From Candidatus Azophilus sp. (GTDB lineage: Bacteria; Pseudomonadota; Gammaproteobacteria; Pseudomonadales; Azotimanducaceae), in the NCBI GenBank assembly GCA_965220835.1, contig OZ244842.1, positions 3,495,611 to 3,559,610 of the forward strand: DNA of 64,000 bases, given 5' to 3'. Under the pieces are notes generated by a model. It was given only the letters and a program-made list of their open reading frames with translations. It did no database searches and was not told the origin of the DNA. Shown here piece after piece: positions 23,818-33,913 of this stretch; the stretch's first letter is position 1; every line of letters starts with the position of its first letter. The translations under genes and the position numbers were made by a program.

Positions 23818-24077
23818 GGGATTCTTCCTTTGGGTTTCAAGAGGGGGCGCAGTATGTCACAGGAGTTCGGGCGGGTCACTAATGGGTTGCTGCGCCAGTT
23901 GGCGGCAAAAGAAGTGCCCGGCCTTGGCCGCGGCATGCCTGCCGAGGTGCGCGCAGCGCGGGACAACGCGACACTGAAAGGCGTTATGGAGACCGGGCCA
24001 TTGGTTAAGGGGCTTTACTAGATTGTGCGAAGTTGCTATGGTGCCCGACGACGTTTTGCTTGAAGTGGGAGGTTCCA

Positions 24078-26261
24078 ATGACGTTATCTGCGGCACGGTC
24101 GAAGAAGTGGCCTCAGCTTGCCGTTCTCGCCCTGTTTGGGTTCTACCTTCCGGCCCTCTTTGCCCAGGAAGACACCATTGAGGAGGTCCGCGTCATCGGC
24201 GAAAGGGCGTTCTTTGAAGCCCAGTTCAATGCCACCCGCACCAGCGCGGGCGCTGACTCGGCCTCCTTGATCAACCTTGTTCCCGGCGGGGCCGCCACCA
24301 GCAACGGCGCTCTATCCGGGCAAATCCAGTACCGGGGCATGTTCGGCCCGCGCATAAACGTGCGCATTGACGGCATGCTCATCCACGGCGGCGGGCCCAA
24401 CTGGATGGCGCCACCGCTGCACCACATCCCGGCCGCCTTGATGGAAGATCTCATCGTGGAGAAGGGCATTGCATCCATTGCGACTGGCGGCGGCATCGGC
24501 GGTGCGGCCAGAGCCCGCTGGAAGCGCCTGCCGTTCAGCGAGGACGGCTGGGGCTTGAAGGGCGATGCGGAATTCTCCGCCAGCTCCGCCGTTGAGGGCA
24601 CCAGCTCGTCGTTCGTTTTCGGCGGCGCTTCCGCCAATCAACGCATCTACCTGATCGGCAACCTGGACGAGGGGGACGACTTCGAATCGCCGGACGGCGA
24701 GGTCGCCGCCACCCGGTACGAGCGTGCCGTGTATGGCTTGAGCTACGGCTTTCAGACCAGCGACCGCAATCACGAATTCAACATCGATGCAAACCGCATT
24801 GAAACGGAAGACACGGGCACGCCAAGCCTGCCGATGGACATTGACTGGTTCGACACCGAAACCTTCAACTTTAGATATAGCGGGTTCCTCGGCGGCTTGG
24901 GCTTGGAGGCCGGCGTTTACCTGTCATCGATCGACCACGGCATGGACAACTTTCGTTTGCGGCCCGCACCGGACTTCTCCTCCTTGCCGCTGCCGCCGTT
25001 TCTCGGCGATGACAAGCGGACCGCGTTTGCCGAGAGCGACGAGTGGGGTTTTCGCGCTGCCGCCAATTGGGACTTGGCACGGGGGCAACTGGTCATCGGC
25101 GCTGAGGGCAAGTACGGCGAACACGACGTATGGGTTGAAGACCCGGACTTCGCGCCGTTTTTCGTCCGCAACTTCAACGATGCGGACACCAAGCACACAT
25201 CAGCCTTTGCCCAATGGTCCGGGGTTGTGGCGGATGACTGGTACTTGGAAGTTGGCGCCCGTCACGAGTGGGTGAAGACGAGCACGGGCGAAGTGGACGC
25301 CTTCCCGGCGCGCTTGGCGGACATGAATCCAGCCATGTGGGGGCCAGGCACGCCGCCGCGGGCGGTATGGCTGCTGCGCGAGCAGTTCAATGCACGGGAT
25401 CGCTCGCAAACGGACGGCAACGTGGATTTGCTGGCCAAGGTGCGTCATCGGCTGACCGACACCCTAGTGGTGGAGGTCGCCGCCGGCCGCAAGACCCGCT
25501 CCCCGATCTACCAGGAGCGCTATCTCTGGATACCGCTGGAGATCAACGCCGGGCTGGGCGACGGCAACAACTACGTTGGCAACCCGGAGCTGAAGCCCGA
25601 GAAATCCGATCAATTCGAATTGGGCTTGGAGTGGCGGCGCGGCGACGCTTGGTTTTCGCCACGGTTGTTTCTGCGCGACGTGGATGACTACATTCAGGGG
25701 GTTCCAGTCACCAACATGGCAGCCATTGGCGTCAGCCGCAACGCCAACGGAGACCCGACGCCACTGATGTTCGACAACACCGAGGCCCGATTCCGGGGTT
25801 TCGACCTGTCGTTCGGTTTCCCGCTCCACACCAACCTGCGCGTTGAGGGCATTGCTTCGAAAGTGACTGGCAAGCGCAGGGACGTCAGTGACCATCTGTA
25901 TCGAATCAACCCGGACAATGCCCGGCTTTCACTGGTGTACGAGCGGGGCAGATTCACCGCGAGCGCCCATCAGATATTCGTCCTGGACCAAGACAATCTC
26001 TCGTTTGCCAACACCCACGATCCCTTGAATCCCAACAACAGCTTTGAGGAGACGGACGGTTACGCGCTGACCAACCTGTACCTGAACTGGACCACAAGCC
26101 GTGGCCTCAGCTTCACGGTCGGTGCGGAAAACCTGTTCGACAATTCCTACATCGACCACCTCTCGGGGTTCAATCGAGTGCTGGACAGTGTTGTGCCGCG
26201 GGGAAGCCGCCTGTATGGTCAAGGCATCAATCTGTTTGGGCGGGTCAGGTTGCAGTGGTAA
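24078..26261 (+). CDS. TonB-dependent receptor (copper context, OprC/NosA-like by position only)
   Basis: ORF 24033..26261, with ATG 24078 preceded by GGGAGG. Signal peptide LAVLALFGFYLPALFAQED. Plug region IEEVRVIGER. Terminal barrel strand GRVRLQW. Confidence 0.85.
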   Translation: MTLSAARSKKWPQLAVLALFGFYLPALFAQEDTIEEVRVIGERAFFEAQFNATRTSAGADSASLINLVPGGAATSNGALSGQIQYRGMFGPRINVRIDGMLIHGGGPNWMAPPLHHIPAALMEDLIVEKGIASIATGGGIGGAARARWKRLPFSEDGWGLKGDAEFSASSAVEGTSSSFVFGGASANQRIYLIGNLDEGDDFESPDGEVAATRYERAVYGLSYGFQTSDRNHEFNIDANRIETEDTGTPSLPMDIDWFDTETFNFRYSGFLGGLGLEAGVYLSSIDHGMDNFRLRPAPDFSSLPLPPFLGDDKRTAFAESDEWGFRAAANWDLARGQLVIGAEGKYGEHDVWVEDPDFAPFFVRNFNDADTKHTSAFAQWSGVVADDWYLEVGARHEWVKTSTGEVDAFPARLADMNPAMWGPGTPPRAVWLLREQFNARDRSQTDGNVDLLAKVRHRLTDTLVVEVAAGRKTRSPIYQERYLWIPLEINAGLGDGNNYVGNPELKPEKSDQFELGLEWRRGDAWFSPRLFLRDVDDYIQGVPVTNMAAIGVSRNANGDPTPLMFDNTEARFRGFDLSFGFPLHTNLRVEGIASKVTGKRRDVSDHLYRINPDNARLSLVYERGRFTASAHQIFVLDQDNLSFANTHDPLNPNNSFEETDGYALTNLYLNWTTSRGLSFTVGAENLFDNSYIDHLSGFNRVLDSVVPRGSRLYGQGINLFGRVRLQW

Positions 26262-26381
26262 CAGCTTTCCTGCTAGCTTCGCCGGGTTGGCTGGCTGGCT
26301 GCGCCCAGGCTGCATTGCCACGGCTGCTGGAACGGGAGAACGACGGCATGGATTCGATGGCATTTGATTGCGGGGCGGCCT

Positions 26382-28835
26382 ATGGAGGCTAGTGCGGAAG
26401 ACCGGCAAAGGTACGACCTGGTAATCGAGGGGATGACCTGCAGCGCCTGTTCGAGCCGGCTGGAGAAGGTGCTCAACGCGACGGATGGCATCGACAGCGC
26501 GGTCGTCAATCTAGCCCTGGAGCGCGCCAACGTCACCGCGCTGCGGGAAAGCCTGAACCTCCAAGGCGTCATCGAGGTCGTGCGCCGCTGCGGTTTCCGG
26601 GTGGGTAGCGAATCCTCCACCTATTTCGTCAGTGGGCTGGACAGCGACGAGGTGGCGAACCACGTGGACGCAACCCTGCGCGGGATTCCCGGCGTCATCG
26701 ACGTGGAGATGGACAGAGCGCAAGAGCGCGTTGAGATCTCGCTGGCTTCGTTGATGGTGCCAGATGCCCTGCTGTTCGAGCAGGCTCGGGGCGCGGGCTT
26801 CGACTTGGTTCCCGATTCCCTGGAGGTGGACGAGCAGGGGCATGCGCAATCGATGCGCGAACGCCAGCAGACTCGGCGGGAACGCATCGCGATCGCCGTG
26901 GCAGTGACTTTGACCGCCCCCTTCTTGGCGCAGATGTTCGTCATGTTCCTGGCCGGGCCCGATGCCATGCACTTGCATCTGCCACCCTTCGCCGAGCTTG
27001 CCTTGGCCATTCCGCTGCAGTTCGTGCTTGGCCTGCGTTTCTATCGGGGGGCCATCAACTCCCTGCGCGGCGGCGGCGCCAACATGGACGTTCTGGTGGC
27101 GATGGGCACCACGTCGGCATTCGCCTACAGCCTGTACCTGATGATTTCGGACTTGGACGCCGCGCGGGGCCAACTGTACTTCGAAGCTTCCGCCATGATC
27201 ATCACGTTGGTGATGATCGGCAAGTATTTTGAGGCTCGCGCCAAACGCGGGGCGGCGGCGGCCATTCAGGAGCTGCTTGCCCTGCAGCCGGACACCGCCT
27301 TGGTGCGCCTGCCCAACGGCGAAGTGGAGGAGCGGCGGGGCAGCCTGCTGCGGGTGGGCGACATCATCGTCTGCCGCCCTGGAGACCGGATCGCCGCCGA
27401 TGGCGTGATCACCCGGGGAGAGGCCGATGTGGACGAGTCCTTGATCACCGGCGAAAGCAACCCCGTGCCCAAGGGCGAGGGTAGTGATGTGGTCACCGGC
27501 TCCATCAACGTCGATGGATTCATCGACATTGAAATCAGCGCCGTGGGCGAAAACTCCACGCTCGCCCGCATGATCCATCTGGTTGAAAGCGCGCAGATCG
27601 GCAAGCCTGCCGTGCAGCGCCTCGTGGACAAGGTCAGCACCATCTTCGTTCCGGCCGTGGTCGCCATCGCCATCGTCACCTTTGTTGGTTGGCTGGTGGG
27701 CGGCGCCGGGCTGGCCGTGGCCGTCAAAAGCGCCGCAGCCACGCTGGTGATCGCCTGCCCCTGCGCACTCGGGTTGGCAACGCCTACGGCCATCATGACC
27801 GGCTCGAGCATCGCCGCTCGCGCCGGCGTCCTCATCAAGGACATCGCCACCCTGGAGCAAGCCCACAAGGTGGATCATGTCGTTTTCGACAAGACTGGCA
27901 CGTTGACCGAAGGCAAGCCGAGCGTTGCGGACATCGAACTGCTGGCCGGCCTTGAGGAAGACGAAGTGCTGCGCATCGCCGCCTCCCTGCAACAGGGCAG
28001 CGAGCATCCCATCGCTCGGGCGTTTCGGGACGAAGTGGAGCGTCGCGGCTTGGCGCTGGCGGATGTGGAGCATTTCAAGAACGTGGTGTCACGGGGCGTT
28101 GAAGGGGACATAGCGGGCACGCGGTATCTGGTTGGCAACGACCGGCTGTTTCTGGATCGCAATCTGGACCCGCCCCCTCGGGAACTGTTCCGTGGCGGCA
28201 CGGAAGTCTGGCTGGGGGCCAGCCTTGCCGGAGGCGATGCGCTGCTGGCGAGGTTCGAGCTGGTGGATGAGTTGCGGCCGATGGCGAAAGCGGCCGTGGC
28301 GCAGCTGCAAGGACAGGGCATCGTGCCCCTGCTGGTATCTGGAGATGCCATCCCGGTGGCCAAGCGCGTCGGCGCGGAGCTGGGCATTGGGGAGGACTAC
28401 GTTCACGGGGAAACCAAGCCGGAAGACAAGGCCCGAATCATCGCTGAGCTGTCCGAAGGGGGGGCGCAGGTTGGCATGGTGGGCGATGGCGTGAATGATG
28501 CGCCGGCGCTTGCCCAAGCCAGCGTGGGGATTGCGCTCGGCACCGGAACCGGGGTGGCCATGGAGACGGCGGCCATCACGCTCATGCGGCCGGACCCCCG
28601 CCTCGTTGCGAGCGCGATTGACATCAGCCGCCGGACGTTTCGCAAGATCAAGCAAAACCTCTTCTGGGCCTTCATCTACAATGTTGTGGGCCTGCCGCTC
28701 GCCGCGTTTGGCTTTTTGAGCCCAACGCTGGCGGGCGCCGCAATGGCCTTCTCCAGCGTCAGCGTGGTCAGCAATTCACTGTTGCTGCGCCGCTGGAAGG
28801 CTGAACTCAACCCTTCAAGTCACCCACAGTCTTAA
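26382..28835 (+). CDS. copA: copper-translocating P1B-type ATPase
   Basis: One N-terminal HMA domain (GMTCSACSSRLEKVL), CPC in TM6 (VIACPCALGLATP), DKTGTLTEGKP, GDGVNDAPAL. ATG 26382 is preferred over TTG 26364. Confidence 0.92.
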   Translation: MEASAEDRQRYDLVIEGMTCSACSSRLEKVLNATDGIDSAVVNLALERANVTALRESLNLQGVIEVVRRCGFRVGSESSTYFVSGLDSDEVANHVDATLRGIPGVIDVEMDRAQERVEISLASLMVPDALLFEQARGAGFDLVPDSLEVDEQGHAQSMRERQQTRRERIAIAVAVTLTAPFLAQMFVMFLAGPDAMHLHLPPFAELALAIPLQFVLGLRFYRGAINSLRGGGANMDVLVAMGTTSAFAYSLYLMISDLDAARGQLYFEASAMIITLVMIGKYFEARAKRGAAAAIQELLALQPDTALVRLPNGEVEERRGSLLRVGDIIVCRPGDRIAADGVITRGEADVDESLITGESNPVPKGEGSDVVTGSINVDGFIDIEISAVGENSTLARMIHLVESAQIGKPAVQRLVDKVSTIFVPAVVAIAIVTFVGWLVGGAGLAVAVKSAAATLVIACPCALGLATPTAIMTGSSIAARAGVLIKDIATLEQAHKVDHVVFDKTGTLTEGKPSVADIELLAGLEEDEVLRIAASLQQGSEHPIARAFRDEVERRGLALADVEHFKNVVSRGVEGDIAGTRYLVGNDRLFLDRNLDPPPRELFRGGTEVWLGASLAGGDALLARFELVDELRPMAKAAVAQLQGQGIVPLLVSGDAIPVAKRVGAELGIGEDYVHGETKPEDKARIIAELSEGGAQVGMVGDGVNDAPALAQASVGIALGTGTGVAMETAAITLMRPDPRLVASAIDISRRTFRKIKQNLFWAFIYNVVGLPLAAFGFLSPTLAGAAMAFSSVSVVSNSLLLRRWKAELNPSSHPQS

Positions 28836-28846
28836 GGAGACCATAG

Positions 28847-29179
28847 ATGACCACATTGGAAATGAAGGTAACCGGAATGTCATGTTCCGGCTGTTCGGGC
28901 ACCGTTCATAACGTCGTTGTCGGACTGAGCGGCGTGAGCAGCGCGAGTGTCGATCACGCCAGTGGGGCGACCACTGTTGAACACGACGGCAGCGTGGACT
29001 CGGAAGCCATCTTCGGCGCCATCCGCGATGCAGGCTTCGGTGTGTCCACCTGCGGCAACGAGAGTTGTGTTTGCGCCAATTGCGGCTGCGATCCCTGTGC
29101 TTGCGCCAAGGGTTCGAACGCTGCAAACGAAAAGTGCAAGTGCAGCAATTGCCAGTGCGACCCCTGCGTCTGCAATTGA
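28847..29179 (+). CDS. HMA-domain copper chaperone (CopZ-like) fused to a Cys-rich metallothionein-like tail
   Basis: 110 aa, with AAGGAG 8 nt upstream of the ATG. Residues 1-67 form an HMA fold with GMSCSGC. Residues 69-109 carry 13 Cys, including CVCANCGCDPCAC and CKCSNCQCDPCVC. Confidence 0.8.
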   Translation: MTTLEMKVTGMSCSGCSGTVHNVVVGLSGVSSASVDHASGATTVEHDGSVDSEAIFGAIRDAGFGVSTCGNESCVCANCGCDPCACAKGSNAANEKCKCSNCQCDPCVCN

Positions 29180-29672: not shown

Positions 29673-31580
29673 ATGCGGCAATCGCGCAGACAGTTCGTAG
29701 GCTGGAGCACGCTGGCAGCGGCGGCGGCTGGCGTGAATGTCGCCCTGCCCGCATGGGCTAGGTCCGGTGCGGCCACCGGGGTCCAGGGCTTAAGTGCGGT
29801 CTCTGGAACCACCTTCGATCTTTCCATTTCCCAGGCGCAGGTGCCGATCGACGGCAGGCTTGGCAACGCGATACTCATCAACGACAGTTTGCCCGGCCCG
29901 CTGCTGCGCTGGCGTGAAGGCCAGGACGTCACCTTGCGCGTCACCAATCACCTTGGTGCCCCAACATCAATCCACTGGCACGGCTTGCTGCTGCCGCCCG
30001 GAATGGACGGCGTGCCCGGCGTTTCCTTCCCCGGCATCGCGCCAGGCGAGACCTTTGTTTACCGGTATCCGATCCTTCAGGCGGGCACCTACTGGTACCA
30101 CAGCCACTCCGGATTGCAGGAACAGTTGGGTCACTATGGCCCGATCGTGATCGAGCCCAAGGCGGACCCGGTCAGCTTTGACCGGGAGTACGTGCTGGTG
30201 CTTTCCGACTGGACTTTCGAAAACCCTCATCACCTGTATGCCAAGCTCAAGAAGAAGAGCAACGTTTACAACCGGCAACGCCGCACCTTGGTGGAGCTCA
30301 TTGGTGACGCGCGTGAGCAAGGGTGGGGCACTGTGCTGGCCGACCGCAGCATGTGGGGTCGAATGCGCATGGATGCAACGGATCTTTCCGACGTCACCGC
30401 CTCCACCTATTCCTACCTGATCAACGGACATGGGGTGTCCGACAACTGGACCGGCCTGTTTCGCGCCGGTGAGCGCGTGCGCCTGAGGTTCGTGAACGCG
30501 GCGGCGATGACCATCTTCAACGTGCGCATTCCCGGCCTGCCCATGACGGTGGTGCAGAGCGATGGCCTTGATCTCCAGCCGGTGGAAACCGACGAGTTCC
30601 AGATCGGCGTGGCGGAAACCTTCGACGTCGTTGTCCAGCCGCTCGATTCAGCCTACACGATCATGGCGGAGTCCAATGATCGCAGCGGCTTCGGGCGGGC
30701 CACGCTGGCCGTTCGCGAAGGTTTGAGCGCACCCATTCCGGAGTTGCGCCCGCGGCCGGTGCTCTCCATGCGAGACATGGCCATGGCGCATGACATGGAG
30801 GGCGGCGGCCATGGCGGGCACAAGGCCATGGGTCATGACATGGAAGGCGGTGGCCATGACGGGCATAAAGCCATGGGTCATGACATGGAAGGCGGTGGCC
30901 ATAACGGACATAAGGCCATGGGTCATGGACGGATGTCTGACGAAAACCCGAAGCCGGCCAGTCATCACGCGCACAAGGGGCATCGCGCCCGCGCCACGCG
31001 CGCTGCTGCGACTTCAGTTCGCGAAGGCGCAACCCAGATTTTTCCTCATGCCAAGGGCCCCGGGGTGGTTGGGTTGGCGGACGTGCAGCAGTTTCGCTTG
31101 GATGAACGGCCCTTCGGCCTTGAAGACGCGCCCCACCGAGTGCTCGTTTACGCGGACCTCAAGAGCCTGACGCCGATTCCCGACCCGCGTCCGCCGGAAC
31201 GGGAGTTGGAGCTGCATCTGACGGGCAACATGGAGCGCTACATGTGGTCCTTCGATGGCGTGAAGCTCTCGGAGGTCGATGGGCCGATCGTGTTCCACGA
31301 GGGCGAGCGCCTGCGGCTGGTCATGGTGAACAACACCATGATGCTGCATCCGGTCCATCTGCACGGCATGTTCTTCGAGCTCAACACCGGCGAGGACCTG
31401 TACCGGCCGCGCAAGCACACGGTGACCATCAAGCCGGGTGAGCGCCTGTCCATCGACGTGACCGCCGATGCCTTTGGTGACTGGGCCTTCCACTGCCATC
31501 TGCTCTACCACATGCACGCAGGCATGATGCGTGTGGTTTCCGTGCGCCGCCAGGACGGCACGGCATGGCAACCCGCCTGA
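29673..31580 (+). CDS. pcoA: copper-resistance multicopper oxidase (CopA/PcoA type), Tat-exported
   Basis: 635 aa. Twin-arginine signal MRQSRRQFVGWSTLAAAAAGVNVALPAWA. Copper-ligand motifs HWHGL, WYHSHS, HPVHLHG and HCHLLYHMHAGMM. Internal Met/His-rich repeats. Confidence 0.92.
   Translation: MRQSRRQFVGWSTLAAAAAGVNVALPAWARSGAATGVQGLSAVSGTTFDLSISQAQVPIDGRLGNAILINDSLPGPLLRWREGQDVTLRVTNHLGAPTSIHWHGLLLPPGMDGVPGVSFPGIAPGETFVYRYPILQAGTYWYHSHSGLQEQLGHYGPIVIEPKADPVSFDREYVLVLSDWTFENPHHLYAKLKKKSNVYNRQRRTLVELIGDAREQGWGTVLADRSMWGRMRMDATDLSDVTASTYSYLINGHGVSDNWTGLFRAGERVRLRFVNAAAMTIFNVRIPGLPMTVVQSDGLDLQPVETDEFQIGVAETFDVVVQPLDSAYTIMAESNDRSGFGRATLAVREGLSAPIPELRPRPVLSMRDMAMAHDMEGGGHGGHKAMGHDMEGGGHDGHKAMGHDMEGGGHNGHKAMGHGRMSDENPKPASHHAHKGHRARATRAAATSVREGATQIFPHAKGPGVVGLADVQQFRLDERPFGLEDAPHRVLVYADLKSLTPIPDPRPPERELELHLTGNMERYMWSFDGVKLSEVDGPIVFHEGERLRLVMVNNTMMLHPVHLHGMFFELNTGEDLYRPRKHTVTIKPGERLSIDVTADAFGDWAFHCHLLYHMHAGMMRVVSVRRQDGTAWQPA
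30789..30923 (+). repeat. 3 x 45-bp in-frame tandem repeat encoding HDMEGGGH(G/D/N)GHKAMG
   Basis: Units at 30789-30833, 30834-30878 and 30879-30923, read directly. They lie inside the multicopper oxidase CDS. Confidence 0.9.
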
Positions 31581-32287
31581 GTCCGGCCGCGTTCATATTG
31601 GCCGCGGTGACGCTTGCCGCGCTCGGTACGGCGACGCCGGCGTGGAGCGAGGCGCGGCCCATCACCATGGCCGAAGCCAAGGCAGCGATGCTCCACGAGC
31701 ATGGTGGCGGGCGTTTCTGGATGGTGGCGGCGGAGCGCCTCGAGCGCACCATCAATTCCGGCGACCAATCAGTGTGGGACATGAGCGCTTGGTACGGCGG
31801 TGACATCCACCGGCTGCGCATCAAGTCGGAAGGCGAGTATGTGGACGGCCGGATCGAGCATGGCGATGTGCAGCTGCTGTACTCCCGCGCCACAACCGCG
31901 TTCTGGGACCTGCACGTGGGCGTGCGCAAGTCCTTAGGCCACGAGCCTGGTCGGCACTGGGCCGCGTTCGGCATTGCAGGCGTGGCGCCCTATTGGCTGG
32001 AAACGGATTTCAGTGTGTATGTCGGCGACAACGGTGCTGCCTTTGCCACCTTGGAATTGGAGCACGAACTGCTTGTCACCCAGAGGGTCGCAGTCCTTTC
32101 CCGTGGCGAGTGGGGGTTGCGGCTGGCCGGCAGCGAATTGGAAGCGCCCAGCGACGAAATGGCCCTCGGCCTGCGCTTGGCGTTCTTCCCCAGTCCTCAA
32201 CTGGCGCCGTACCTGGGCTTCGAATGGACACGTAGCGACGGGGAGAGTGACACCGTGGTGGTTGCCGGCGTCTCGCTCTGGTTCTAG
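31565..32287 (+). CDS. pcoB: copper resistance protein B (CopB/PcoB outer-membrane protein)
   Basis: 240 aa. Signal peptide AAFILAAVTLAALGTATPAWS. Family-typical GDIHRLRIKSEGEY...DLHVGVR...APYWLETDFSVYV. It overlaps the oxidase stop by 16 nt. Confidence 0.85.
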   Translation: MATRLSPAAFILAAVTLAALGTATPAWSEARPITMAEAKAAMLHEHGGGRFWMVAAERLERTINSGDQSVWDMSAWYGGDIHRLRIKSEGEYVDGRIEHGDVQLLYSRATTAFWDLHVGVRKSLGHEPGRHWAAFGIAGVAPYWLETDFSVYVGDNGAAFATLELEHELLVTQRVAVLSRGEWGLRLAGSELEAPSDEMALGLRLAFFPSPQLAPYLGFEWTRSDGESDTVVVAGVSLWF

Positions 32288-32357: not shown

Positions 32358-32437
32358 CACCGCACGCCGGTAAAATTACCGCACGCCGGTAAAGTTACCG
32401 TACGCCGGCAAAGTTACCGTACACCGGCAAAAAGGTA
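32358..32437. repeat. 4 x 19-bp tandem repeat, each unit carrying TTACCG-N5-CGGTAA
   Basis: Units at 32358-32376, 32377-32395, 32396-32414 and 32415 onward. The last unit forms the final codons (LFAGVR-stop) of the lipoprotein gene. Confidence 0.85.
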
Positions 32438-33913
32438 ATCGGCTGCACAGGAGTCCGTTTCGTTTTGAAAGGAGACGGAAAACGCGACAGTGGACGCCGT
32501 CGGCAAGGCGAAGCGGTCAATGGTCCAAGTTCCCGTTTGGTCGCTGCTGGAACGATAGGTGCCTGACGCGGTGAGCGCTTCGGCGTTCTCCACCGGAGTG
32601 CCGGACAGCTCCAGAACCCGCCCGTAGAAGTTATCGAACTGAAGTGCCAATGCCTCGTCTTCCGCAGTGACCGTCAGTGTGGTCGAGTCTGCCAGCGGAA
32701 TGCTGCCGATGCACTCTGGCGCGCCCGCGGTCACCAAGCTCTTGCCGACCGAGGTCTGGGCTAGCAGCAACGGACCATAGGTGGCGAGAGGGGCCGCGGA
32801 CGGCATGGGCCACTCCGCCTCGATGGTGGTGCCGACGCGCGCGCCCTCGGCGCCGAGCACGACGGACTCCCGGTGGGTTGCCACGGTGCCCGCGCCATCC
32901 CCCCATTCGACGAGAACGTCATAGGGGCCGATGATCATTCCCTCGAACCGGGCGAGCGGCTCGTCACGCTCGAGCGTGACCGTCTGAGCTTGCCCGTGCC
33001 CCAGCACCTCCACCGTAGCCAGTGCGTCCCGAGACCCCTTGACCACGCCCAAGGAAGGCGGGTTTTCGAGCAAACCGGCAAACTCCAGCGTCGTCTGGCA
33101 GGAGCCAGCGGGATTTTCCAGTTCAACCAAGATGGCTGCCGCATTTGGCGCGGGCTCCGATAAGTGAGTGAGAGCCCAAGGCCCAGCCACGCCATAGGAC
33201 GACTTGAAGGTTCCCCTGGCGGTGAGCGGCGAGGAATCCGGATCGAACTGGCCAGATAGCGTCAGTGTGTCGCCTTGGGCTCCGCTGAAGTTCAGGTTCA
33301 AGGCCTCACCGTCCGCGATGAGGGCCAATTCCAAACGGGCGGCATCCTCTGCGCCGGGTTCTATGTCGGGACGCAAGCATCCTGCTTGGTCGAAATTCGC
33401 CCTGCCGGTGTAGCGACGCTGCGTGGATGTCTTGATCGCTGCTTCGACCACCAGATCGGCTCGCTGGTAGTCCACGTTCACGGTCACGTCGCCGGTGGTT
33501 TCCTGCAAGTTGATGAAGTAGGCGTAAGTGCCGATTTCCGCGCCGGCGCTGTTCACGGCAACCCGCAGGTCGTAGCGGCCAACCTCGAGGTCATCAAAGC
33601 GCACGAGCCTTGCGCCTTTCGGCATTTCCCGCTCGAACGTGCCGCTTTCGCCCTCAAGCGTGACCACGGCGACGGCGCCCGCGGGCATGGCCTCGTCTGA
33701 GCTGATGTGCAGGCGCACGATAGCCGAACTCAGCACGGGCGTCGGCTCCACCTCGACGACTTCGGCCTCCGACTCGTCCGCGGCATCCGACTCCGGCGGC
33801 ATCGGTTCAGGCACGTCAACCGTTTCACATCCCGAAACGGCCAAGAGGACGATGCCAAAAGCGAGCATCGACTTCGTTGCAGCGCACAGTTGCGCTCGAT
33901 TGGAATTCCGCAC
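32414..33913 (-). CDS. hypothetical lipoprotein with internal two-fold duplication
   Basis: 499 aa. Lipobox LLAVSGC. An acidic linker is followed by two homologous halves of about 215 aa, each with a conserved Cys pair and ending SC...(E/L)FAG(L/V). Confidence 0.7.
   Translation of the reverse strand: MRNSNRAQLCAATKSMLAFGIVLLAVSGCETVDVPEPMPPESDAADESEAEVVEVEPTPVLSSAIVRLHISSDEAMPAGAVAVVTLEGESGTFEREMPKGARLVRFDDLEVGRYDLRVAVNSAGAEIGTYAYFINLQETTGDVTVNVDYQRADLVVEAAIKTSTQRRYTGRANFDQAGCLRPDIEPGAEDAARLELALIADGEALNLNFSGAQGDTLTLSGQFDPDSSPLTARGTFKSSYGVAGPWALTHLSEPAPNAAAILVELENPAGSCQTTLEFAGLLENPPSLGVVKGSRDALATVEVLGHGQAQTVTLERDEPLARFEGMIIGPYDVLVEWGDGAGTVATHRESVVLGAEGARVGTTIEAEWPMPSAAPLATYGPLLLAQTSVGKSLVTAGAPECIGSIPLADSTTLTVTAEDEALALQFDNFYGRVLELSGTPVENAEALTASGTYRSSSDQTGTWTIDRFALPTASTVAFSVSFQNETDSCAADYLFAGVR

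Follow-up and report, generated by a model that had tools for sequence, protein, structure and literature searches.

A putative copper chaperone with a duplicated thionein-like cysteine tail in Candidatus Azophilus, and the spread of its module among prokaryotes

Characterised copper buffers of the bacterial cytoplasm are few, namely MymT, the Csp proteins, CutC and CopZ (PMC11672702), and in reviews they stand beside SmtA/BmtA as the metal-sequestering proteins of this compartment (PMC7558416, PMC11672702). The CopZ proteins are described there as single-site; the only two-domain CopZ in these reviews is an Fe-S form from Archaeoglobus fulgidus (PMC7558416, PMC11672702), in which a further Cys-rich metal-binding domain is joined to the HMA chaperone (PMC7558416). 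Here we describe a gene of Candidatus Azophilus sp. which encodes an HMA domain of the CopZ type followed by a Cys-rich tail with two copies of a short module. The gene lies in a stretch of 64,000 nucleotides of contig OZ244842.1, called here the window, to which the coordinates in Table 1 refer; an earlier note, made from the letters of this stretch alone, had drawn attention to it. We consider it probable that the product is a CopZ-type Cu(I) metallochaperone whose tail is a two-cluster Cu(I)-thionein buffer, and from comparative genomics we infer that the tail would bind several Cu(I) ions. The unit of which the tail is built was not found in Pfam, NCBIfam, the Protein Data Bank (PDB) or the literature; the fusion itself combines two known kinds of protein, a chaperone and a thionein.

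How does this protein compare with the described systems? With the CopZ/Atx1 chaperones (B. subtilis, E. hirae) it shares the single HMA domain, the MxCxxC site, the fold and the cytoplasmic location. As expected of a CopZ, it is paired with a Cu(I)-exporting P1B-1 ATPase, whose gene it adjoins and with which it is probably co-translated. It differs from them in length, having 110 residues against the approximately 65-70 of a single-domain CopZ, and in its 43-residue tail with 13 extra Cys, and its scores lie below the cut-offs of the NCBIfam CopZ equivalogs (49.2 against 85 bits for NF047957, 45.5 against 91 for NF033795, and 34.6 against 95 for NF033794). In A. fulgidus CopZ the additional domain is N-terminal, far larger, and carries Zn and a [2Fe-2S] cluster, whereas here the addition is a C-terminal tandem thionein-like module.

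The tail resembles SmtA/BmtA in being bacterial and Cys-rich, and it would likewise belong to the multi-metal thiolate cluster type. SmtA itself, however, is a Zn4 protein of about 56 residues with a zinc-finger-like fold and His ligands, and neither the tail nor seven of the module peptides described below matched the SmtA/BmtA family PF02069 at E<=10. The earlier note had likewise set the tail apart from SmtA/BmtA, and no curated family includes it. MymT, a cytoplasmic Cys-rich protein of bacterial copper resistance with up to six predicted Cu(I) (PMC7558416, PMC11672702), can be regarded as a functional analogue of the stand-alone peptides which the same module forms. Unlike them, it is confined to mycobacteria and has no HMA fusion, whereas the module spans many phyla. 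The MymT motif, which includes His and has a different spacing, is probably distinct, and the Pfam and NCBIfam searches gave no match to a model by which MymT would be represented. Csp1 and Csp3 are high-capacity Cu(I)-thiolate stores, cytoplasmic or periplasmic (PMC7558416, PMC11672702). They are pre-folded four-helix-bundle tetramers holding 13-20 Cu per monomer, whereas the tail is short, predicted to be disordered and unrelated in sequence, and no helical bundle appears in its AlphaFold2 model. Although its composition is that by which metallothioneins are defined (about 30% Cys, CxC and CxxC pairs, no aromatic residues), the tail fits no described metallothionein family.

The fusion protein, its partner ATPase and its relatives

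The earlier note had reported an ORF of 110 residues with a Shine-Dalgarno sequence right after a P1B-ATPase gene, and our reading of the sequence confirms this. The AAGGAG motif overlaps the TAA stop codon (28833-28835) of the 823-aa ATPase ORF, which indicates translational coupling of ATPase and chaperone; the two genes are 11 nt apart. No terminator-like site was found in the interval between them, and there is no sigma-70-like promoter or terminator of note around the HMA gene. The full-length protein begins at beta-strand 1 and has no signal peptide, so it should be cytoplasmic.

With the copper-translocating ATPase model TIGR01511, whose cut-off is 397 bits, the ATPase reaches 542 bits, and it carries the signatures CPC465, YN772, MAFSS794 and DKTGT509. 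By the combination CPC/YN/MxxSS it is marked as a Cu(I)/Ag(I) pump of the P1B-1 type, and it is presumed to be the acceptor of the copper carried by the chaperone.

Residues 1-67 had been taken for a CopZ-type HMA domain, and both the GMSCSGC motif and the match of PF00403 to residues 6-64 (E=1.5e-10; 41.8 bits against a gathering threshold of 24.8) bear this out. The structure prediction for which the earlier note had called was made with AlphaFold2. It gives the HMA part confidently as a beta-alpha-beta-beta-alpha-beta fold of the ferredoxin-like kind (strands 2-9, 30-35, 41-46 and 65-67, helices 16-25 and 52-61), with block-mean pLDDT of 82-91 for residues 1-60 and 70 for residues 61-70, and with MxCxxC at the junction of loop 1 and helix 1. 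Its nearest sequences in the PDB are likewise HMA domains, from ATP7B, HMA4 and CopA of B. subtilis. The tail remains below pLDDT 50, with only two helices of 4-5 residues. Such low confidence is what would be expected of an apo-thionein, AlphaFold giving a metal-free model and a metallated tail being beyond its reach.

The tail contains exactly 13 Cys (positions 69, 74, 76, 79, 81, 84, 86, 97, 99, 102, 104, 107 and 109), which make up 30% of its residues, and F, W, Y and H are all absent. Counting thus reproduces the claim of 13 Cys in residues 69-109, in two modules joined by a linker of 10 residues, and the spacing CxCxxCxCxxCxC occurs twice. The two modules had been described as 13 residues long. 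Both are present, but the first is in fact an 18-residue unit with seven Cys which starts at C69, and the second keeps six Cys and the D-P pair without the first Cys of the full unit. A degenerate DNA pattern for CxCxxCxC(D/N)PCxC matched twice in the window against 0.00 matches expected from 100 shuffles, and across its six frames we found no other stop-free stretch of 43 aa with 13 Cys.

Is the tail a real part of the protein? Its low AlphaFold confidence and the existence of a close tail-less relative would fit a non-functional low-complexity extension, or an artefact of annotation or assembly. However, the identical protein is encoded on four contigs, and three others, drawn from two assemblies, have the same gene order. 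Candidatus Foliamicus (P0003, 111 aa, 72% identical) and Candidatus Azophilus (P0002, 105 aa, 75% identical) each encode an orthologue, and at both loci the order of ATPase, HMA-tail gene, small ORF, CopA oxidase and CopB is kept. In a codon alignment of these two with the window gene all 12 module Cys columns are invariant, with synonymous TGT/TGC variation at four of them; between the window and Foliamicus, the tail codons differ by 14 synonymous and 9 non-synonymous changes. Among the orthologues the residues of the linker vary, and its length changes by one. The invariant Cys together with the synonymous changes argue that the tail is real coding sequence under purifying selection. Since the junction and the module are found in Alphaproteobacteria (in a cluster of 35 members) and Binatia as well, the idea of an artefact is effectively refuted by conservation, and we regard it as hardly credible. 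Module 1 of the window is closer to module 1 of Foliamicus than to module 2 of the window, so the internal duplication is older than the split between these lineages.

How rare is the fusion? An exhaustive HMMER search of a profile from four fusion proteins against 1.84 billion representative sequences gave 12,634 HMA matches, and among the best 150 of them a single HMA domain with the module was present only in P0001 and P0081. Multi-HMA proteins swamped this full-length search, and the two fusion clusters are a lower bound. P0081 is an alphaproteobacterial protein of 86 aa with one module; its cluster at 90% identity comprises the 35 members mentioned above, which, where named at all, are called only 'heavy-metal-associated domain-containing protein'. 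A pattern scan of genomes added a Binatia fusion protein (L016, 88 aa), again with one module, and a metagenome scan seeded with HMA peptides returned 51 HMA relatives, none of which has a Cys tail. The combination, called unusual in the earlier note, is thus rare in both the representative and the metagenome searches.

The HMA domains of the fusion proteins are 44-82% identical among themselves against 30-51% to non-fusion HMA domains. Together with their common junction, GFGV-x-x-CGN-x-x-C, this places the fusion proteins in one clade. The number of modules within it varies: none in P0005, the tail-less close relative (63% identical), one in P0004, P0081 and L016, and two in the window protein and its orthologues. 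A tabulation of neighbourhoods, also proposed in the earlier note, places the fusion genes after a P1B-ATPase wherever the flank allowed; the one-module genes follow it directly in L009 and L016, the loci with enough flank.

The module and its regulators across prokaryotes

The degenerate pattern was scanned against one genome per species in 185,579 species. The module was detected at at least 119 loci in many phyla, against approximately 4 expected by chance (our own estimate from the 38 bits of the pattern); about 15 of the matches are clearly off-frame and of low complexity. The full unit can be written as C-x-N-P-x-C-x-C-x2-C-x-C-[DN]-P-C-x-C, with seven Cys in 18 residues. In 18 modules from diverse loci the seven Cys and one Pro are invariant and the N and D are kept in 90% or more, and module 1 of the window (C69-C86) aligns without gaps with the 17 others and has the features of the full unit. 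With such a spread, the module is not an oddity of the window protein.

Among the matches listed, approximately 40 are stand-alone ORFs of 21-60 aa, some of them with signal peptides, and some peptides of 21-25 aa consist of nothing but the module. Their hosts are Chloroflexota/SAR202, Sphingomonadales, CPR lineages, Melainabacteria, Acidimicrobiales and others. The module also forms the C-terminal end of a copper amine oxidase (L100), of ferredoxins (two ferredoxin loci), of an ABC ATPase, of a Ser/Thr kinase and of surface proteins. An exact-sequence lookup of 20 stand-alone peptides recovered three of them from a collection of 15 billion proteins, none with a functional name. No Pfam or NCBIfam model matched the tail or, save for sub-threshold hits to eukaryotic metallothioneins, the related peptides. 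A PDB sequence search with the tail and with a profile of the 18 modules gave no match, to which the bias filters of HMMER may have contributed, nor did a homology search for the tail by itself in a word index, which handles Cys-rich words poorly. Our literature search found no description of the motif, of CopZ-metallothionein fusions or of Cys-rich peptides linked to CsoR or CueR.

The stand-alone modules flanked by regulators are the strongest evidence for the thionein reading. In a Pfam scan of the 123 immediate neighbours (<=1.5 kb) of 41 stand-alone module genes, again among the matches listed, the most frequent families were metal-type MerR with PF09278 (6), CsoR/RcnR (PF02583; 5), DUF305 (3) and NosL (2). 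Among 123 distal ORFs from the same loci, which served as a control, no family occurred more than twice, and neither regulator family was among those occurring twice. A metal-sensing MerR or a C-H-C CsoR stands beside the module gene in 11 of the 41 loci, and the arrangement is canonical in 10 of these 11: all six MerR genes are divergent from the module gene, with gaps of 114-176 bp, and of the five CsoR genes four lie just upstream of it in the same orientation. The C...H...C triad, as would be expected for a Cu(I)-sensing CsoR, is present in all five CsoR neighbours; a canonical x-C-H-C motif of CsoR is implied in PMC11672702. These regulators suggest that the module family is metal-responsive. 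Two of the MerR neighbours end in C-x7-C-P-I-L, which we take to be the loop of CueR, and two have C-x8-C loops. In addition, one stand-alone peptide (L097) is encoded directly upstream of coxB/ctaD. Copper appears to be the best-supported metal for the family.

The Cys spacing had been likened in the earlier note to that of eukaryotic Cu-thioneins. None of the eukaryotic metallothionein families PF00131, PF01439, PF12749 and PF02066 was matched above threshold; a stand-alone two-module peptide of Azophilus alone gave sub-threshold matches (8-14.4 bits against 22-27, E 0.07-4), and the window tail had zero match to these four families. In Drosophila MTF-1, CNCTNCKCDQTKSCHGGDC, the first four Cys and the Asp have the same spacing as in the module, CxCxxCxCD. 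The clusters of MTF-1, Ace1/Amt1/Mac1 and the 7-Cys Neurospora metallothionein are similar to the module in carrying 6-7 Cys within fewer than 20 residues. The Neurospora Cu-metallothionein, at 25 residues among the shortest known metallothioneins, is comparable to the module in Cys count and to the 21-25-residue module peptides in size. In contrast to the eukaryotic clusters, the ending D-P-C-x-C and the lead-in C-x-N-P-x-C are specific to the prokaryotic module, and since homology is not detectable the likeness is probably convergent. The comparison made in the earlier note is supported to this extent, by the sub-threshold Pfam hits and by the CNCTNCKCD of MTF-1. The six-Cys cluster CNCTNCKCD...C of MTF-1 binds 4 Cu(I) cooperatively as a Cu4S6 cage, for which a segment of 19 residues suffices (PMC2396432).

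Does the 18-residue unit then define an unrecognised, phylum-spanning family of prokaryotic mini-metallothioneins? Such a family would be mostly missed by gene callers, in a substantial fraction controlled by CsoR of the Cu(I) type or by metal-type MerR (some of it CueR-like), and would act as a portable copper-cluster cassette, attached to chaperones, cuproenzymes and other proteins, whose link to Cu(I) trafficking is the HMA fusion. We see the chances of this broader proposal as about even. If the module peptides do bind copper, bacterial metallothioneins would be far commoner than assumed, many of them uncalled because of their shortness. Being so small, the module is also a candidate for use as a tag in metal capture or biosensing.

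Proposed mechanism and its alternatives

In the mechanism that we propose, the tail would be disordered without metal and would serve in a copper surge as a local high-capacity buffer which catches cytoplasmic Cu(I). Each module, with seven and six thiolates respectively, would fold round a Cu4S6-type cluster in which thiolates bind several Cu(I), so that the tail of one chain could take up roughly 8-10 Cu(I), with one more at MxCxxC. Cu(I) would pass by thiolate ligand exchange from the tail to the adjacent HMA site, which would dock on the ATPase and hand the ion over for export, and the exported copper would be handled in the periplasm by the CopA oxidase and CopB. A chaperone with a built-in multi-copper buffer, if it exists, would couple sequestration directly to export.

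Several observations weigh against this proposal. The tail-less P0005 shows that a chaperone of this kind can do its basic work without the tail. Beside the HMA-tail gene in the window we identified no regulator that senses copper, and metal regulators are absent nearby in 30 of the 41 stand-alone loci. The MerR neighbours fall below every equivalog cut-off, the models for MerR, ZntR, CueR and CadR all scoring alike, so some of them may sense Zn, Cd or Hg and not Cu. Certain fusions of the module (with a ferredoxin, an ABC ATPase, a Ser/Thr kinase, and SLH and outer-membrane proteins) have no obvious copper link, and these, with the signal-peptide forms, suggest that the module may serve more generally, in binding soft metals or as a structural element.

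Could the tail, then, be a general soft-metal thionein for Zn(II), Cd(II), Hg(II) or Ag(I) and not a Cu(I)-specific buffer, each module binding one or two divalent ions and the range of metals being broadened? The indifferent MerR scores would fit this, as would the two MerR neighbours with C-x8-C in place of the C-x7-C which we assume for CueR, and a CDF cation-efflux gene near the Foliamicus locus. We nevertheless think it unlikely, because the partner ATPase carries the Cu(I)/Ag(I) signatures CPC/YN/MxxSS and not those of the Zn/Cd type, the rest of the operon consists of the CopA oxidase and CopB, and the C-H-C triad is found in every CsoR neighbour. The Cys cluster of MTF-1 speaks for both sides: it also gives 1:1 complexes with Zn and Cd, but Cu(I) readily displaces Zn(II) from it (PMC2396432).

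The closest characterised motif, that of MTF-1, belongs to a sensor and not to a store (PMC2396432). The tail might similarly be a copper-dependent switch or docking element in which clusters formed at high copper adjust export through HMA/ATPase engagement or oligomerisation, much as Cu4 clusters switch Ace1, Mac1 and MTF-1. That enzymes as unrelated as a kinase, an ABC ATPase, a ferredoxin and an amine oxidase carry the module as a tail is what a regulatory appendage would show, and the copy number of 0, 1 or 2 among close relatives points the same way. On the other hand, module-only peptides of 21-25 aa cannot regulate a fused partner, and a duplicated module raises capacity, which is more sensible for a buffer. 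CsoR- or MerR-type control of a small Cys-rich peptide, we infer, fits sequestration. We therefore judge a switch improbable.

It is very unlikely that the tail binds an Fe-S cluster or acts as a redox or disulfide module, for instance by reducing Cu(II) so that Cu(I) can be transferred, a role that has been proposed for the extra Cys-rich domain of A. fulgidus CopZ. The CxCxxCxC spacing, the adjacent CxC pairs and the 30% Cys are typical of thioneins, and to our knowledge this spacing is not typical of Fe-S ligation; no Fe-S model of Pfam matches the tail, and the neighbouring regulators are metal-sensing MerR and CsoR proteins, not redox sensors. What favours such a role is the fusion to ferredoxins in two loci and the precedent of the two-domain CopZ with an Fe-S domain (PMC7558416). 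That the small peptides are precursors of ribosomally synthesised and post-translationally modified peptides was considered and, for the tail, set aside: a folded chaperone precedes it in the same chain, and the genes around the stand-alone modules include no recurrent maturation enzyme.

The copper cluster of the window and other proteins with the module

The cytoplasmic copper setting of the HMA-tail protein, which the earlier note had assumed, is supported by the Cu(I) signatures of the ATPase and by the CopA oxidase and CopB downstream (Table 1). The gene had also been placed between an exporter and an oxidase. The cluster as such is there, with the ATPase before and the oxidase after; the direct adjacency to the oxidase is not, as an ORF of 69 aa lies between. 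A horizontal origin of the cluster as an island was considered and gained no signal, GC content over 24-33 kb being 61.5-65.1%, like that of the flanks.

Table 1. Coordinates of the HMA-tail gene, its parts and the surrounding genes in the window
Feature	Position	Strand	Basis or remarks
TonB-dependent receptor, upstream edge of the cluster	24033-26261	+	Pfam Plug, TonB_dep_Rec_b-barrel
P1B-1 type Cu(I)-exporting ATPase, CopA-like	26364-28835	+	Pfam E1-E2_ATPase, Hydrolase, HMA
Shine-Dalgarno AAGGAG	28834-28839	+	Read in sequence, 7 nt before ATG
HMA chaperone gene with double thionein-like tail	28847-29179	+	ATG start, 110-aa ORF
HMA / CopZ-type domain, residues 1-67	28847-29047	+	Pfam PF00403
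Putative Cu(I) site GMSCSGC, residues 10-16	28874-28894	+	Sequence
Thionein-like module 1, 7-Cys 18-residue unit CGNESCVCANCGCDPCAC, residues 69-86	29051-29104	+	Consensus match
13-residue core of module 1, CVCANCGCDPCAC	29066-29104	+	Pattern match
Cys-free linker AKGSNAANEK, 10 residues, 87-96	29105-29134	+	Sequence
Thionein-like module 2, 6-Cys unit CKCSNCQCDPCVC, residues 97-109	29135-29173	+	Pattern match
Conserved 69-aa ORF, hydrophobic segment and GGHGHHGG loop	29396-29605	+	Conservation
CopA-type periplasmic multicopper oxidase	29673-31580	+	Three Cu-oxidase domains
CopB outer-membrane copper resistance protein	31565-32287	+	Pfam PF05275, E=1.7e-48
499-aa ORF directly downstream of copB	32414-33913	-	Signal/lipoprotein-like N-terminus; no Pfam match

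The best NCBIfam match of the TonB-dependent receptor is TIGR01778 (TonB-copper), at 152.8 bits below its cut-off of 472; a gene for such a receptor precedes the ATPase also in Azophilus L123. The CopA oxidase reaches 785.7 bits with TIGR01480 (copper_res_A), whose cut-off is 479. Inside its gene lies a 45-bp tandem repeat (30775-30927, plus strand; 3.4 copies, 89% matches), which codes for at least three copies of the Met/His-rich unit MGHDMEGGGH(G/D/N)GHKA, presumably a variable copper-binding loop.

The 69-aa ORF has no match in Pfam or NCBIfam and is 69-84% identical in Foliamicus and Azophilus, and copies of about 40% identity follow the P0004 gene in L178 and adjoin the ATPase gene of Binatia in L016. 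The ORF and these relatives (L120:8459-8680, L123:8566-8775, L178:407-625 and L016:3323-3493), of 69-73 aa, share the hydrophobic segment, the GGHGHHGG loop and the motif LH..MWFLM..AHAD..W and accompany the pair of HMA-module gene and ATPase in four lineages. They may represent an unrecognised small membrane component of the copper system.

One further candidate for comparison, a thioredoxin-metallothionein chimera of 2026, was rejected as a relative of the window tail, its own tail being of the SmtA type. In this Runella chimera (PMC13578184) the thioredoxin part is 96% identical to enterobacterial TrxA and the metallothionein part 98% to Synechococcus SmtA, a pattern that would suit contamination of the assembly by an expression construct better than a native gene.

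The module is not always single in the stand-alone proteins. The two-module peptide of Azophilus (chromosome OZ244892.1, L047:7523-7756) has the layout ...CKCSNCKCDPCRC-(9 aa)-CKCSNCKCDPCRC, and the same genome encodes, elsewhere, the HMA orthologue P0002 with its two modules. A comparable stand-alone protein with two modules follows a csoR-like gene in an Acidimicrobiales metagenome-assembled genome (L049). Five other stand-alone peptides (L063, L072, L082, L106 and L109) have an N-terminal signal peptide and are still flanked by CsoR-like or MerR-type genes; this suggests exported, periplasmic versions of the module, in which a thiolate cluster would need protection from oxidation.

Larger carriers of the module form several groups. 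Bacteroidota lipoproteins are among them, and in Prevotella/Bacteroidaceae (L012, L014, L019, L041, L059 and L117) membrane proteins of about 300 aa bear 2-4 modules at the C-terminus. The latter start with MWL(I/F)NSS..GRKVVMS and resemble, as we assume, the cytochrome b subunits of fumarate reductase/succinate dehydrogenase; L014 has no Pfam match. In Chloroflexia/Ktedonobacteria (L002, L039, L044, L052, L086, L092, L103 and L114), a family of about 190 aa has the N-terminal motif GARG-x-SCSC(D/N)PCDC(D/N)PC-x-C, after which comes a domain like DUF1326 (PF07040), with a score of 24.3 bits that lies just below the cut-off. Two Bacillus proteins of approximately 460-540 aa (L075:2984-4372 and L118:789-2411) carry many N-terminal tandem repeats of CKCHRC(N/D)CDPCKC, and two proteins of Clostridia (L056 and L073) combine an N-terminal module with collagen-like GPT repeats; in these repeat proteins of Bacillus and Clostridia the motif may have been put to use at the spore surface or in the exosporium.

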